A DNA stretch of 64,000 bases from Pseudomonadota bacterium (lineage in GTDB: Bacteria > Pseudomonadota > Gammaproteobacteria > Burkholderiales > JABEVD01). The DNA is taken from NCBI GenBank assembly GCA_021802545.1, contig JAJZRS010000015.1, positions 2,239 to 66,238 on the forward strand, read 5' to 3'. The notes under the pieces were generated by a model that saw nothing but the letters and a program-made list of their open reading frames with translations, ran no database searches and was not told the DNA's origin. Numbering within the stretch: the stretch's first letter is position 1; every line of letters begins with the position of its first letter. The position numbers and the translations under genes are program-made. Positions 58,263-64,000 of the stretch are shown piece by piece.

Positions 58263-58338
<76 letters not shown>

Positions 58339-58350
58339 GGAAGTTTTCCT

Positions 58351-58426
58351 GTCCCCATCGTCTAGAGGCCTAGGACACCGCCCTTTCACGGCGGCGACAC
58401 GAGTTCGAATCTCGTTGGGGACGCCA
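58351..58426 (+). tRNA. tRNA-Glu (TTC)
   Basis: GTCCCCATCGTCTAGAGGCCTAGGACACCGCCCTTTCACGGCGGCGACACGAGTTCGAATCTCGTTGGGGACGCCA. Anticodon loop is CTTTCAC. Confidence 0.95.
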
Positions 58427-58462: not shown

Positions 58463-58484
58463 TGGGGTAAAATTGGGGTAAAAT
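58463..58484 (+). repeat. Perfect tandem duplication of an 11-mer (TGGGGTAAAAT x2)
   Basis: Read directly: gTGGGGTAAAATTGGGGTAAAATccc, 37 nt after tRNA-Glu. Preceded by the 7-bp inverted repeat CCACTTG (58437-58443) / CAAGTGG (58459-58465). Confidence 0.8.
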
Positions 58485-58496
58485 CCCGCAAATGAA

Positions 58497-58522
58497 AAGC
58501 CCGGATAATTCCGGGCTTTTTT
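58497..58522. terminator. Bidirectional rho-independent terminator between the tRNA pair and the BRCT gene
   Basis: gAAAAGCCCGG-ATAATT-CCGGGCTTTTTTg. The T-run serves the plus strand; the A-run reads as CTTTTC on the minus strand. Confidence 0.7.
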
Positions 58523-59574: not shown

Positions 59575-59949
59575 TCAAAGTGTCTGATTCAGTTTGCGGC
59601 CTGCTTGACCCCTATTCTCCTCCAGCCAGCTCTGAATCTTTTCGTGGGCTGATCCAATTCTGTTGTACATCGTCACCTTTGAGCATCCGCAATCTACTGC
59701 TTTTTGCACAGTAGTTCCTTTCCCCAGGTAGAAAATTTTGACCGTTGTCTGCAGCAGATCATCGAGCGATCGCACTGCCTGGTCGATTTCCCAAGCCCCA
59801 TCGTTAAACTCAGCTGAAAGGCCCCTGCCGCCCCTGGCCTCAAGTCGGCAATACGAGGCTTCACGAGGAAACCCTATATTCGATGTCCTTCCAGACAAAC
59901 ACCAGATGGCCCAGCGATTCATCCTGTTATCGATTTCAGAGTTTTTCAC
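59575..59949 (-). CDS. Phage antitermination protein Q-like (sigma region-4-like HTH)
   Basis: 124 aa. NRWAIWCLSGRTSNIGFPREASYCRLE...DGAWEIDQAVRSLDDLLQTTVKIFYLGKGTTVQKAVDCGCSKVTMYNRIGSAHEKIQSWL. This matches my recollection of the Phage_antitermQ family pattern (W-x-x-W, G-(F/Y)-P, ID-x-AV, C-terminal HTH). Confidence 0.55.
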   Translation of the reverse strand: MKNSEIDNRMNRWAIWCLSGRTSNIGFPREASYCRLEARGGRGLSAEFNDGAWEIDQAVRSLDDLLQTTVKIFYLGKGTTVQKAVDCGCSKVTMYNRIGSAHEKIQSWLEENRGQAGRKLNQTL

Positions 59950-59970: not shown

Positions 59971-60531
59971 TCAGTTAGCCAACCTTATCACATCATTCAA
60001 CGTCTGACGAATTACCTCACGCAACTCGCGCTCAACAGCCCATGGATCAGTCATTCCAGAAATCTTATGCGACATCTCAGCGGGTATTTTAAGAAATCGA
60101 TCGGTCAACAAATCTATCGTAGCCCTGCAGGCATGAAACACTCTGTCGCGCTCTACCAGGGATGCGGATTTCTCTTCGAGTTCGAGCTCTGCAATCATTG
60201 CAAGAGCCCCTTCTCTTCTGGTCTTGTTTTCCCAGTATTTCGGATCCGATGCCCTAGATTCACCCTCTACGCCAGGTCGACCGAACAGACTGCTATGACC
60301 TACATCTCGCTCGGCTCTGTTAAAGGCATGAAGATCACGAATATATTCCTTTGCCGGATCTGCGGTATGTTTGAGCGCTTTCAGTGTCTCTCGAACAGCT
60401 ATACGCTTTCCATCAGGGGAAAAAGTAAGCCTCCCTTGCTTTTTTAGCTTTGTGATATAGCTTGGACTCCACCCCATCATTGCAGCAAATTGAGATTTGA
60501 GCAAATATTGATCTTCCTCAATTCCGTCCAT
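59971..60531 (-). CDS. Phage terminase small subunit, Nu1-like (N-terminal HTH)
   Basis: 186 aa. HTH LLKSQFAAMMGWSPSYITKLKKQGRL, then a helical region (KTRREGALAMIAELELEEKSASLVERDRV...IPAEMSHKISGMTDPWAVERELREVI). This resembles the Nu1-type TerS organisation. Confidence 0.5.
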   Translation of the reverse strand: MDGIEEDQYLLKSQFAAMMGWSPSYITKLKKQGRLTFSPDGKRIAVRETLKALKHTADPAKEYIRDLHAFNRAERDVGHSSLFGRPGVEGESRASDPKYWENKTRREGALAMIAELELEEKSASLVERDRVFHACRATIDLLTDRFLKIPAEMSHKISGMTDPWAVERELREVIRQTLNDVIRLAN

Positions 60532-60540
60532 TCGACAGAC

Positions 60541-62304
60541 TCATGACGGGCTCATTGCATGGGCGATACGCACTCCAACCGAGGCGTTCTTGTCATTTTT
60601 CGCGGTAACCCTGGTTCCCGCAGGGGCGTTCTTCAGAGCCACTTCGACATGGACTTTCTGCGGCTGCGGGGACGCGCCTCCGTTCACGGCTTGCGAATCA
60701 ATATTGTGCGCGCGCCGCAAATATGCCTGCGTCTCGCTTGGAAGAACGACTATATTGCGCCCAGAAGCAATGAATCTGTCCGCAACTCCCGGGCCTCCAT
60801 TGTAGGCGGCAAGAATAGCGTCTTCGTCATTGCCGTATCTTTTTTGCAGGGCACCCAAAACAGCGCTTGCGGCTGCTTTGTTGTAATCTGGATCGGTAAG
60901 CCGTGCCGGATCGAAGCCATATTGAATTGCCGTTCCGGGCATGATCTGGTAGCGTCCAATAGCACCTTTCGGAGAAATCGCATTATCACCGCTTCTCTCC
61001 AATTTCTTAACCAGGCCGAGCAGCCCCGGAATCGCGAGCGCATCTTTCCTCTGAAGCTTGAATCCCTCGGGAATGCTGACAGAATGAGTCCCATCGGCAT
61101 TGTATTTTATCGGAGCAAGGGGAGGCAACGCGCCATATTTAGGCATCGCGCTTTTCACTCCCCTCAATTTGTCGATAGAATCACCCAGCTTATTTGCCCA
61201 GTAATACGCGCCGCCAAGAGCTACGCTTATCGCCCCGACTGCAGCAAGCACCGGGTTTGCCCACATCACCAAACCCAGAGTGGTAAGCGATGCGGTAAGG
61301 CTTACGACACTTGAAAGGAGCGGACCCGCCAGAACGAGACCAATCCCAATCATTCCTGCCTTCCATTGTTCCCAGTTCGTGTTCTTGAGCGCATCCGCCA
61401 GCTTCTGGACGAATTCGGTGATCTTGCTGGAAATGAGTTGCTTGTTTTTCGAGATCCACGCGCCCAGCTTTTCCAGCAACGGCCCCAAGACCGGAACCAG
61501 ATCGTTTCCGATGGTGTTCCTCAGATTCGTCAGCGTCATGTCGAAGCGCATCATGTTTTCGTTGTAGCGATTGGCCGCCTCGATCTGGGCCGGCGTCATG
61601 ATCAGCCCCAGCTTTCTGGCTTTCTGGATATAGGCATCGATCCCCTTCGACCCCTTCTGCAGCAGGTAGAGCATCGATTCCACCCCCATTGTCCGGGCCA
61701 CCAGGGCCTCAGCCTGGACGTTTCCCTTGAATGCCGGGTTTTGCAGAGCGTTCGCAATGTCCCGAAATGCCCTGGTCGCGTCGACCGCGCCGGATTTCGT
61801 GCGATGCATGGAAATGCCGAGTTGATTCATCATCTGTATGGCTCTTGGGTTCCTGCCGTAGGTCGCATCCTCGAGGGTATCGCCCAGGCTCTTCAGCGCA
61901 CCGGTCATCGACTCCGACGAAAGGCCGGCCATTTTGGCAGCTCCCTGGAATTCCTGAAGGTTCGTCGTCGAAATGCCGAGGACTGACGATGTTCTCGTGA
62001 GCGAATTTCCCCATCTTCCGAACTGGGTAGCCAGGTCGACAACGCCGGCGACAGTTCCAACCCCAACAATGGCGGTAAGCGGAGCGACGATCGAACGGAT
62101 GTTTGACGAAACCTTTCCGGCTTTCTCCGAGACGTTCTTGAGATTGCGCCCGAAACGGTCGAGTCCAGCCTCCTTCGTCATTGCTTTCACAGAATTGCGG
62201 ATGTTTTCTATTGGACGTGTAACCTTGGCCAAGCGATCATTTAGCCTTCTGATATTAGCGGTAAATCTATCCTGAGCTGTGATACGAATTGCAAATTCGT
62301 TCAT
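60541..62304 (-). CDS. Phage tail tape-measure-like protein with C-terminal lytic transglycosylase (SLT) domain
   Basis: 587 aa. Helical N-terminal two thirds with a TMP-like core (LQEFQGAAKMAGLSSESMTGALKSLGDTLEDA...). Hydrophobic segments (GMIGIGLVLAGPLLSSVVSL...). SLT motifs ERSGDNAISPKGAIGRYQIMPGT...AAYNGGPG. Confidence 0.7.
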   Translation of the reverse strand: MNEFAIRITAQDRFTANIRRLNDRLAKVTRPIENIRNSVKAMTKEAGLDRFGRNLKNVSEKAGKVSSNIRSIVAPLTAIVGVGTVAGVVDLATQFGRWGNSLTRTSSVLGISTTNLQEFQGAAKMAGLSSESMTGALKSLGDTLEDATYGRNPRAIQMMNQLGISMHRTKSGAVDATRAFRDIANALQNPAFKGNVQAEALVARTMGVESMLYLLQKGSKGIDAYIQKARKLGLIMTPAQIEAANRYNENMMRFDMTLTNLRNTIGNDLVPVLGPLLEKLGAWISKNKQLISSKITEFVQKLADALKNTNWEQWKAGMIGIGLVLAGPLLSSVVSLTASLTTLGLVMWANPVLAAVGAISVALGGAYYWANKLGDSIDKLRGVKSAMPKYGALPPLAPIKYNADGTHSVSIPEGFKLQRKDALAIPGLLGLVKKLERSGDNAISPKGAIGRYQIMPGTAIQYGFDPARLTDPDYNKAAASAVLGALQKRYGNDEDAILAAYNGGPGVADRFIASGRNIVVLPSETQAYLRRAHNIDSQAVNGGASPQPQKVHVEVALKNAPAGTRVTAKNDKNASVGVRIAHAMSPS

Positions 62305-62687
62305 TCCAGCCCCCCAGTATTCTCAACGAGGTTGGAAAACTGATTTGTCATCGTATCAAGAGAGCGCAACTTGTATTTTGAGAGATATTCCCGAGGATCT
62401 ACACGACCTTCCATAAGCTGATTCAGCTCCTCAGGAAGTTTTAGCACCCCGAATGCACCTAGTGAAGCTTTTTTTGACAAAAGCTCCTTTATCGCCCAAG
62501 ACATTGCAATGTGGTTCACAATCCCATGTACAGCTTCCAGATGAATTTTTCCTCTAGCCCGACGCCATTCACTTGCACCTTGAACCAGGAGCTGCAACAG
62601 AGCTTCCGCAGCCTCTTGTTGCCCTTTAACGTCATTGGTCTTCAATTGCGTTTCCAGATTCTCGACTGCGGACTGCACGTTAATCAT
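62301..62687 (-). CDS. Hypothetical phage protein (position suggests a tail assembly chaperone)
   Basis: Preferred start is ATG 62687 behind TGGAGAAGATTG; the track start 62720 has no good RBS. Its stop overlaps the tape-measure start (ATGA). No family recognised. Confidence 0.5.
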   Translation of the reverse strand: MINVQSAVENLETQLKTNDVKGQQEAAEALLQLLVQGASEWRRARGKIHLEAVHGIVNHIAMSWAIKELLSKKASLGAFGVLKLPEELNQLMEGRVDPREYLSKYKLRSLDTMTNQFSNLVENTGGLE

Positions 62688-62832
62688 CAATCTTCTCCAA
62701 AATTTTGCAGACGTCTGCATGTATTAAGATACCTACCTTCTACCCTACTTACAGGACTATGTAAAAATATAAAATTGCCCGTGATTAAGGGTGATTTTGT
62801 ATTGCTTTCGCTGATTTGAATTTCGGCCGCCA

Positions 62833-63010
62833 GGGGAAAATATGTCGCGCCACAAAATAGGCTTTTCCATAATCCCATTCCCCAGAAAGCGCGCATTCTT
62901 GGGGAAATTCCCCAAGAATGCCGGACAAAAATCCTGAAAATGGGGAAACTCGGATTGAGCATTTATGCGGCCTTCGAGGAATTTTCCCCAACTTCCCCAA
63001 CTTCCCCAAT
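62833..63010. repeat. Array of eight GGGGAA/TTCCCC motifs, including a perfect 27-bp palindrome and three tandem 9-mers
   Basis: GGGGAA at 62833, 62901 and 62942. TTCCCC at 62878, 62908, 62984, 62993 and 63002. Palindrome CATTCTTGGGGAAATTCCCCAAGAATG at 62894-62920. Tandem TTCCCCAAC, TTCCCCAAC, TTCCCCAAT at 62984-63010. The region is otherwise non-coding. Confidence 0.85.
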
Positions 63011-63050
63011 AAAAAAATTACATCAGGAATATTTTGAACGGAATAAGCGG

Positions 63051-63674
63051 TCACGTTGCATCCGTTGCCGAAAGATCCCCCGTCATTGCCTTTAGGATGA
63101 TCTTGTAGGGTTTCAATATTGAGGCCAACCCGGAGAGCGTCCATGATGCGTCGAAGATCACGGCATCCTGGTTGAATTCGCCCATGAAATAGGCTGCAGT
63201 GCTTACGGATCCACCGGAGGCGTCCGCATCATCAGCCAAAACAGCGATTGGATTCTGGCTGCCGTCTGTTGCAGTCTTGATCGACTCGACATAATTTCCG
63301 GAACCAGCAGAAATGGCTATCGTGAATGAATCACCAGCTGCCATGGGAGTGGTTCCTGAAGTGAAAGTAAATGCAATTAGCTTATCGATGTAAGCCCCAG
63401 CTGCAGTTCCGGGATTGAGTTGCTTTCCTGCTGGGTCAATCACCTCGAATGCCGTGGCGCCTGTAAACTGAATCTGGTACTGCCCGACAATTGCCAATGA
63501 ACCCGTGCTCACCAGAGTAATCGTTCCATTTCCAGTATTCGTACCGGCTACTGGGGCACCAGCAGCACCGACCGTCTGCTGCCCAAGGATGGTGCCGCGC
63601 TTCAGAGTGCCTGATCCGAGCGTAATGCTCTCGGTGATGAGTTTCAGATTTCCTGCAATCAGCTGATCTGGCAA
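63051..63674 (-). CDS. Phage head decoration protein (lambda gpD-like family), possibly N-terminally damaged
   Basis: 207 aa. PDQLIAGNLKLITESITLGSGTLKRGTILG matches the family N-terminal pattern as I recall it. The only start is TTG 63674, with no RBS, and an in-frame TAG lies 10 codons upstream. Confidence 0.55.
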   Translation of the reverse strand: MPDQLIAGNLKLITESITLGSGTLKRGTILGQQTVGAAGAPVAGTNTGNGTITLVSTGSLAIVGQYQIQFTGATAFEVIDPAGKQLNPGTAAGAYIDKLIAFTFTSGTTPMAAGDSFTIAISAGSGNYVESIKTATDGSQNPIAVLADDADASGGSVSTAAYFMGEFNQDAVIFDASWTLSGLASILKPYKIILKAMTGDLSATDAT

Positions 63675-63894
63675 ATAGGCATTCGCTGATACGCCAGGAG
63701 CCTAAGCATTGTCCGATATAGAAGTTACATTCAGAGTCACATCAAAATCCTTTTCAAATTTTAGGGAGTAGCCCTTAACGGGGGCTATGCGGCCAGGTCA
63801 CTTTCCTTCACCAGGCTAGATCAGGTGAAGACGGAGTTCATGAAAGCCCTTGCTGCCGGCGTTTTTCTCCACCTCCGGCTGGGAGTGAGCACCA

Positions 63895-64000
63895 TCAGTG
63901 CAATTCGGTGATTTTGAGCTCGCGCTCCTGCTCACTGTTGATTTTCACCACGGGAGCTTCATCAAATTCGATGTTTTGACTTTTCTGTGTCGCTGACTGA
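63895..64000 (-). CDS. 3' end of an unidentified phage gene (5' part beyond window)
   Basis: My minus-strand translation from the window edge reads QSATQKSQNIEFDEAPVVKINSEQERELKITELH, then TGA at 63895-63897. Its position upstream of the decoration gene would fit a protease or scaffold, but there is no sequence evidence for that. Confidence 0.3.
   Translation of the reverse strand, partial: QSATQKSQNIEFDEAPVVKINSEQERELKITELH

Follow-up and report, generated by a model that had tools for sequence, protein, structure and literature searches.

A dense GGGGAA/TTCCCC array in a rearranged prophage remnant as a probable orphaned phage replication origin

What could eight copies of a short word be doing within 178 bp of a non-coding gap in a phage-derived island? 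The question is raised by a 64-kb stretch of bacterial DNA (the window, by which we mean the whole stretch analysed), near one end of which the hexamer GGGGAA and its complement TTCCCC pile up between two structural genes. A first-pass annotation had left three answers side by side, i.e. iterons of a replication origin, operators, or recognition sites for the small terminase subunit (TerS), and had drawn attention to a TerS-like gene nearby.

The cluster is real and non-random. GGGGAA occurs at 62833, 62901 and 62942 and TTCCCC at 62878, 62908, 62984, 62993 and 63002, that is, eight exact copies within 62833-63007 (five one way, three the other), precisely where the first-pass annotation had placed them. 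The rest of the window holds 61 hits in 63.8 kb, or ~0.17 expected per 178 bp, which bears out the claim of a density far above chance (Poisson P(≥8) ~1.5e-11). When hexamers are ranked by local density over the whole window, GGGGAA comes first with its eight copies and the next unrelated word has six. The repeated word extends to TTCCCCA(A), with TTCCCCA in seven of the eight copies and TTCCCCAA in five, and the array accounts for five of the eight occurrences of TTGGGGAA in the window.

These copies are arranged in an orderly fashion. Copy 1 (62833-62838) lies on the minus strand, GGGGAA on the plus strand being TTCCCC on the other. Copy 2 (62878-62885, plus strand, TTCCCCAG) and copy 3 (62899-62906, minus strand, TTGGGGAA when read on the plus strand) form an imperfect palindrome of ~29 bp around GCGCGC (62889-62894). 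Copy 3 is also the left half, and copy 4 (62908-62915, plus strand, TTCCCCAA) the right half, of a perfect palindrome, GCATTCTTGGGGAA-A-TTCCCCAAGAATGC (62893-62921), which had been correctly described as perfect around one central base but is 29 bp long with 14-bp arms (62893-62906 and 62908-62921, 100% complementary), not 27 bp with 13-bp arms. Copy 5 (62941-62947, minus strand, TGGGGAA on the plus strand) sits directly to the left of a spacer, CGGATTGAGCATTTATGCGGC (62951-62971, plus strand; the CGGATTGAG..TTTATGCGGC spacer), which is conserved in some relatives (see below). Copies 6-8 (62984-63010, plus strand) follow head to tail at 9-bp spacing as TTCCCCAAC TTCCCCAAC TTCCCCAAT; this triple 9-mer (TTCCCCAAN three times over) and the A7 run after it (63011-63017) are present as first reported.

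The whole array is contained in a gap of 363 bp (62688-63050), between the stop of a head-decoration gene (63051) and the ATG of orf128 (62687). Two overlapping minus-strand ORFs do exist there (62687-62962 and 62785-63144) but have no Pfam or PHROG family match, and their earlier dismissal as spurious holds. By tblastn, the gap contains no remnants of the capsid, tail, tube, chaperone or DNA-circulation genes of related phages. A generic genome repeat (REP or MITE), which the first-pass annotation had itself set against its reading, is ruled out within the window since the gap DNA matches itself alone there, with no second copy. No relatives of the gap were found in the collections searched (phage records, viral contigs, proteins and metagenomes), the DNA of the whole island has no match among 50,697 phage records, and a metagenome scan for palindrome plus triple gave 0 hits. 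Scans with 17 nt of the palindrome and 20 nt of the spacer returned mostly chance or coding matches, the only true relatives being L084/L087, which are of the same phage type as L038 (introduced below). The gap has no DnaA box at ≤1 mismatch, and Rfam at a permissive threshold reports the two tRNAs of the locus and nothing in the gap. On an AT profile, the array is flanked on the side of the triple by an A+T-rich stretch that includes the A7 run (63008-63037, up to 84% AT), which is a candidate DNA-unwinding element, and on its other side by a second one (62750-62803, 80% AT).

What kind of element carries this array? Just past tRNA-Ala and tRNA-Glu (58263-58426) G+C drops from ~0.60 to ~0.50, and the array sits in a low-GC, phage-derived island next to tRNA-Glu, all genes of which are on the minus strand. 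In the order of transcription, these are an uncharacterised ORF, the decoration gene, the 363-bp gap, orf128 (or orf139), and genes for a tape-measure protein, TerS, a Q-like protein and a BRCT-domain protein, the last adjoining the tRNA. The decoration gene (63051-63740, minus strand, lambda-D-type, 58% identical to its relatives) is a probable pseudogene, its codon 13 being an in-frame TAG (63702-63704) in place of the Gln of relatives; it retains the ancestral GTG start (63738-63740) and an AAGGA ribosome-binding site, and the locus also has a 207-aa ORF from a TTG at 63674 that is devoid of a ribosome-binding site. Orf128 (62301-62687, minus strand) has an ATG at 62687 with the ribosome-binding site GGAG, a likely start that is also the one used by gene calls on public contigs, and becomes orf139 if an upstream ATG (62720) is used. 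It overlaps the start of the tape-measure gene (ATGA) and is an orphan that has no homologue outside this organism: with orf139 as query, viral contigs gave no relative, and a collection of 5.8 billion proteins gave nothing but the protein itself. The tape-measure protein (60541-62304, minus strand, 587 aa, with an SLT lytic transglycosylase domain) is intact and 47-50% identical to relatives over its full length, its closest homologue (P0063) being 69% identical over 64% of the protein. The Nu1-like TerS gene (59971-60531, minus strand), noted earlier as lying 2.3 kb from the array, is genuine: it matches phrog_57, its product is 49-54% identical to relatives' TerS, and its homologues adjoin the gene for the large terminase subunit (TerL). 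The island TerS diverges from its relatives around residues 130-150, and its C-terminus is ~10-12 residues shorter (...NDVIRLAN vs ...ADDLDKAMEVSH), which may affect interaction with the large subunit. No TerL gene was found in the island, including beside terS. The Q-like protein (59575-59949, minus strand) is 64% identical to that of relatives.

The closest homologues of the island TerS, Q-like, decoration and tape-measure proteins belong to L038/L040, L039/L042 and L041, which are phages that join a head of the lambda type to a tail of the Mu type. Their TerS homologues are all followed by genes for TerL, gpW, portal, S49 protease, scaffold, decoration and capsid, and their contigs also encode a Mu-like sheath, tube and baseplate. 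The order in these phages is primase-helicase, a gap, two 66-aa genes, Q, a minor tail gene, the cos gap and then TerS onward. Directly after their Q-like gene comes TTGACA-N17-TATAAA, and behind it a GC hairpin with a T-run (L038:2385-2500, L039:1950-2050), which together look like a textbook Q-antitermination unit; nhmmer finds no counterpart of this promoter and terminator in the island. Also missing from the island are the capsid-to-chaperone block, everything past the tape measure, TerL and the cos region. On comparison of the two maps, the order of the island is not derivable from that of its relatives by deletions alone. It is this order, together with the missing modules and the TAG in the decoration gene, that leads us to view the island as a rearranged prophage remnant, in which surviving genes are cut off from their partners. 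No sister islands (tape measure, then TerS) turned up, all nine homologue contexts (9/9) showing the standard phage order. One of the relatives, the complete-looking phage L039/L042 (ERZ27237461:k141_685765), shares its metagenome sample with the 78-kb contig in which the window lies, and its TerS, Q and tape-measure proteins are 49, 64 and 47% identical to those of the island.

The outer edge of the island lies beyond the window. Public contigs with this DNA are all 100% identical, except L011 (99.98%), a shorter contig that begins inside the gap at 62756, and those reaching past the decoration gene all break ~555 bp beyond the window. At that edge is the end of an IS3-family element (L007:1-132, ~424-555 bp beyond the window, equivalent to ~64424-64555), with the start of its orfA (HTH_Tnp_1, E 5e-4) and, read by eye, an IS407-like terminal inverted repeat, TGACCTGCCTCCCACTAGG. 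Upstream of the decoration gene, the reading frame of the uncharacterised ORF runs on to the IS boundary, and this ORF may therefore be truncated. No gene for a VapE, primase or O-like initiator was detected by tblastn in the window and its 555-bp extension.

The key to the array comes from its counterparts in the same phages, which carry two look-alike kinds of arrays, one after the primase-helicase gene and the other at terS. In L038 and L039, the former fills the gap directly after the first gene (VapE-like_dom, E 6.5e-77; PHROG DNA helicase/primase, E 5e-108), with ~13 copies of CGTCCAACC/GGTTGGACG in both orientations over ~310 bp, a head-to-tail triple, an alternating GC block of ~45 bp and an AT-rich stretch, after which come two inverted copies, a spacer of ~25 nt and two direct copies. 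The triple, CGTCCAACC GTCCAACCT CGTCCAACC, is found in L038, L039 and L100-L104, and parallels that of the island. Layout and repeat word are kept in L100-L104, which encode VapE relatives at 64-67% identity, and in L101 two perfect DnaA boxes flank the array. Pseudomonas relatives have other words, e.g. GTGTTGGGT, again after the primase gene. By position and form, these arrays are putative origins of the kind used by the Rep proteins of staphylococcal pathogenicity islands (SaPI).

The island array has much in common with them. On the plus strand it has the same layout, i.e. an inverted copy (62941-62947), the spacer and three direct copies, and it shares with the uncultivated phages L038, L039, L084 and L100-L104 the succession of inverted copies, spacer and direct copies, a triple with ~9-bp period, a GC-alternating element (here the GCGCGC block between copies) and AT-rich DNA, here on the flanks. 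The repeat core CCAAC is common to both. The spacer is 19/21 identical to the one between inverted and direct repeats in L038, L039 and L084, a single similar block of 21 nt found after several gaps had been inspected. Its local alignment score of 17 was reached by none of 300 dinucleotide shuffles (mean 11.1, max 16), and it is the best hit of the whole window for a nhmmer profile of the L038 and L039 arrays, with a marginal E=0.17 over 128 kb. There are differences too. The word is TTCCCCAA vs GTCCAACC in L038-type arrays, there are eight copies in 178 bp vs ~13 in ~310 bp, the GC block measures 6 bp vs ~45 bp, and the module is, unlike in L038-type arrays, detached from a helicase gene and inverted (relative to the island genes). 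The spacer is not conserved in L100-L104, and a profile comparison with L100-L102 gives no signal; it would be odd for simple divergence that the island keeps the spacer with another word while L100-L104 keep the word without the spacer. On balance, however, the architecture of the island array matches the ori-like, not the cosB-like, type of these relatives.

The reading that we favour, and hold to be reasonably probable, is that the array is an iteron-type phage replication origin, or its surviving core, orphaned in a decaying, IS-flanked prophage remnant. Its source would be a temperate phage combining a lambda-like head with a Mu-like tail, and the initiator in such phages would be a VapE/D5-type primase-helicase. 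The C-terminal winged-helix domain of this protein would bind many copies of a short word, in both orientations, directly after its own gene, and several bound protomers would then promote helicase loading and opening of the neighbouring A+T-rich stretch. In the island, the eight TTCCCCA(A) copies would serve as these sites, with protomers facing each other on the palindrome and lined up along the 9-bp triple, and the stretch at 63008-63037 would be the candidate for unwinding. The module would have come to lie, inverted with respect to its neighbours and parted from any initiator gene, between the decoration pseudogene and the block of orphan ORF, tape measure, TerS and Q, in an island whose rearrangement went beyond deletions and which has the IS3-family element at its edge. 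The genes that flank the array are structural, and since no initiator gene lies by the array, in the window or in the 555 bp beyond, the adjacency that defines such origins is missing; an inverted module, detached from its initiator in a rearranged island, is thus most likely an orphaned origin. It would be active only if DNA beyond the IS, or a co-resident phage, provided a cognate initiator in trans. The array and its architecture, the location of the matching arrays in relatives, the common spacer and the lack of partners are direct observations; binding by a primase-helicase, unwinding and present-day inactivity are what we infer from them.

How does such an origin compare with better known ones? 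For SaPI Rep helicases, the binding sites are 6-12 penta- or hexanucleotide iterons right behind the rep gene, which are in opposite orientations around an AT-rich region and are recognised by the winged-helix domain of the helicase (PMC9371898). SaPI/PICI origins, which are served by self-loading SF3 helicases (Rep or Pri-Rep), thus resemble the island array in having short iterons in both orientations in non-coding DNA with AT-rich DNA nearby. They differ from it in being directly downstream of rep with an AT-rich centre, whereas the island array has AT-rich flanks and no adjacent rep, and the initiator of the phage relatives is of VapE type, not a SaPI Rep. Similar features are familiar from phage P4 ori/crr, with its alpha primase-helicase and type I iterons, and from lambda ori, with its O-protein iterons. 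Their repeats (octamers or 18 bp long, direct and inverted) are bound by the winged-helix domain of the initiator beside an AT-rich region, lambda ori has a palindrome, and both P4 crr and lambda ori are found next to or within their initiator genes. The likeness of the island array to P4 and lambda is one of form only, and we claim membership in neither family.

The same word occurs in comparable settings in unrelated viruses. Viral contigs were chosen only for having two adjacent TTCCCCAA copies, and the seven densest TTCCCC/GGGGAA arrays were inspected, leaving out L012, whose copies are purely in tandem and end a contig. One array comes directly after a DUF927+HTH_56 (Cch-like helicase) gene (L116) and another directly after an AEP-primase+AAA_25 gene (L137). 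Two adjoin phrog_19930 DNA polymerase/primase ORFs (L166 and L126), with an alternating GC block in L166, and a fifth is upstream of a helicase-polymerase fusion read from sequence motifs (L109). The neighbours of the L144 array have no family match. No terminase gene was found among the scanned ORFs immediately flanking six of these dense arrays (L116, L137, L166, L126, L109 and L144), the seventh being L176, on a giant-virus contig. As separate observations, L012:11180-11245 contains at least seven tandem copies of TTGGGGAAC that run to the contig end and adjoin a small gene, putatively GapR/DUF2312-like, and five TTGGGGAA/TTCCCCAA copies, including the TTGGGGAAATTCCCCAA palindrome also seen in the island, lie in the middle of a 290-aa ORF in L060:540-650 and L043:~2180-2290. 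This ORF has no Pfam hit and looks like a replication-organiser protein, and an array within it resembles the situation in lambda, where the origin is within the O gene.

The second kind of array in the phage relatives lends itself to a different view, namely that the eight repeats are R sites for the island's Nu1-like TerS, i.e. a cosB/pac-like recognition site, which would give the island, as a satellite or a defective phage, its own packaging specificity. At terS, relatives have a short-word array on the start codon (L038:3190-3290; L039:2740-2830; L017-L035, about -70 to +15 of terS; L014/L015:5930-5990). In the L038 and Ralstonia types it consists of 4-5 copies of GTGAA, including in the Ralstonia type a GTGAA-A-TTCAC palindrome with a one-base centre; in Pseudomonas phages, the TerS recognition helix of which differs, the word is GTTAAC, spaced at 9 bp. 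From their position and covariation with TerS, these look like cosB-like sites. Like lambda-type cosB, the island array repeats a short word not far from a Nu1-like terS gene. It also has a palindromic pair centred on a single base, GGGGAA-A-TTCCCC, which resembles the Ralstonia palindrome, and GGGGAAA is one base apart from GGTGAAA. No GTGAA array is present upstream of the island terS, and therefore the GGGGAA array is the sole candidate, if any packaging site exists. However, we consider the packaging view unlikely on several grounds. In all ~20 relatives examined the array is on the terS ATG, adjoining the gene as in lambda-type cosB, whereas that of the island is 2.3 kb away, separated from it by orf128 and the tape-measure gene, whose stop is 9 nt from the terS start. 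The recognition helix of the island TerS, WSPSYITKLKKQGRL, is almost identical to WSPSYVTKLKEQGRL and WSPSYVTKLGKEGKL of GTGAA genomes, yet the array word is GGGGAA, a correlative argument to which the Pseudomonas clade adds weight, a changed helix there accompanying GTTAAC. A nhmmer profile of 18 cos regions has no match in the gap or the island (best E=3.4, elsewhere), and there is no cosN-like sequence, unlike in lambda-type cos. Eight copies in both orientations over 178 bp fit the ori-type array of relatives, not a 4-5-copy cosB. Finally, the TerL gene is absent and the C-terminus of TerS is shortened. Of the three functions proposed at first, iterons are thus favoured (by ori-type architecture, spacer and CCAAC), and the link to TerS is left unsupported by an array that is distal to terS, by the helix and by the lack of a cos match. 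A homology of the gap to relatives' cos regions that had been suspected by eye (TGGCGGCCGAAATTC vs TAGCGGCCAG/TAGCGGGTGAATTTC) was rejected, the cos profile having no hit in the island.

Operators, the remaining function on the first list, would make the array a cluster of repressor or activator sites, either for a promoter of the orf128, tape-measure, terS and Q genes or for a divergent plus-strand transcript. On the coding strand, the next gene lies 113-330 bp downstream of the array, and dimeric regulators typically bind palindromes and tandem sites. But the number of promoters predicted in the gap equals the shuffle expectation, with one weak sigma-70-like match on the plus strand (62748-62775) and no consensus promoter on the coding (minus) strand. 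No regulator gene adjoins the array, eight sites over 178 bp would be unusual for an operator, and the Q-type unit of relatives is a single strong promoter and terminator with no such array, all of which makes regulation a rather improbable function.

Could the plus strand instead act as a structured RNA, or as single-strand DNA hairpins in which each GGGGAA pairs with the next TTCCCC to give three hairpins? The gap does fold better on that strand (z = -4.7, 0/100 shuffles as good) than on the minus strand (z = -2.0), and within the second A+T-rich stretch is a plus-strand-specific hairpin of 14 pairs (62767-62802), which requires G-U pairs and therefore forms only in plus-strand RNA; this hairpin adjoins the weak promoter-like match. 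However, inverted copies by themselves make any array fold well, and the strong plus-strand fold is mostly due to them. Two of the three hairpins consist of 6-7 pairs closing loops of ~40 nt, there is neither an Rfam match nor homologues for covariation, and the plus strand is antisense to every island gene. A functional fold is accordingly the least probable reading, and very unlikely indeed.

Short clustered repeats in both orientations are also found at parS/parC sites, integrase arm sites and transposon ends, and the array might represent sites of another multi-protomer DNA machine of this sort (a partition centromere, recombinase arm or transposon end) brought in by recombination. This would suit a rearranged island with an IS element at its edge, but no par, integrase or transposase gene adjoins the array, the window has no second matching end or other copy, and the shared spacer and layout point specifically to primase-helicase-adjacent arrays, which leaves this origin for the sites very unlikely.

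Finally, the island might be an undescribed satellite-like element, with intact TerS, tape measure and Q genes and an origin whose repeat word has been switched, which we regard as an unlikely alternative to an orphaned origin. Equally speculative is how such an element might operate: it would have kept a helper-type spacer with a new iteron, and would exploit co-resident helper phages of the L039 type, a primase-helicase supplied in trans either replicating the element or being titrated by it.

If the array is indeed an orphaned origin, there are several implications. First, the strongest non-genic signal in the window could be assigned to a known mechanism, i.e. initiator-binding iterons, and the two look-alike arrays of this phage lineage, ori-type and cosB-type, could be told apart. 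Second, the primase-helicase-adjacent arrays of the lineage would carry different words (GTCCAACC, GTGTTGGGT and TTCCCCAA) on a similar scaffold, a variation that could help to study how the specificity of the initiator winged-helix changes. Third, the island should be annotated as what is left of a rearranged prophage, its cis sites orphaned, and not as a phage that can be induced.

Other repeats were seen in the island. The gap of 220 bp that precedes the decoration gene contains an inverted repeat, CTTCACC-N11-GGTGAAG (63806-63830), followed by a GTAGCCC...GGGCTAC hairpin, and a third GGTGAA is at 63944, GGTGAA being the word of relatives' terS-proximal arrays. At the opposite end, no att repeat of the tRNA was found inside the island. 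A tandem TGGGGTAAAAT TGGGGTAAAAT lies 37 bp past tRNA-Glu (58463-58484), and may represent attachment-site arm repeats; it is followed by a strong terminator-like hairpin (58494-58521).
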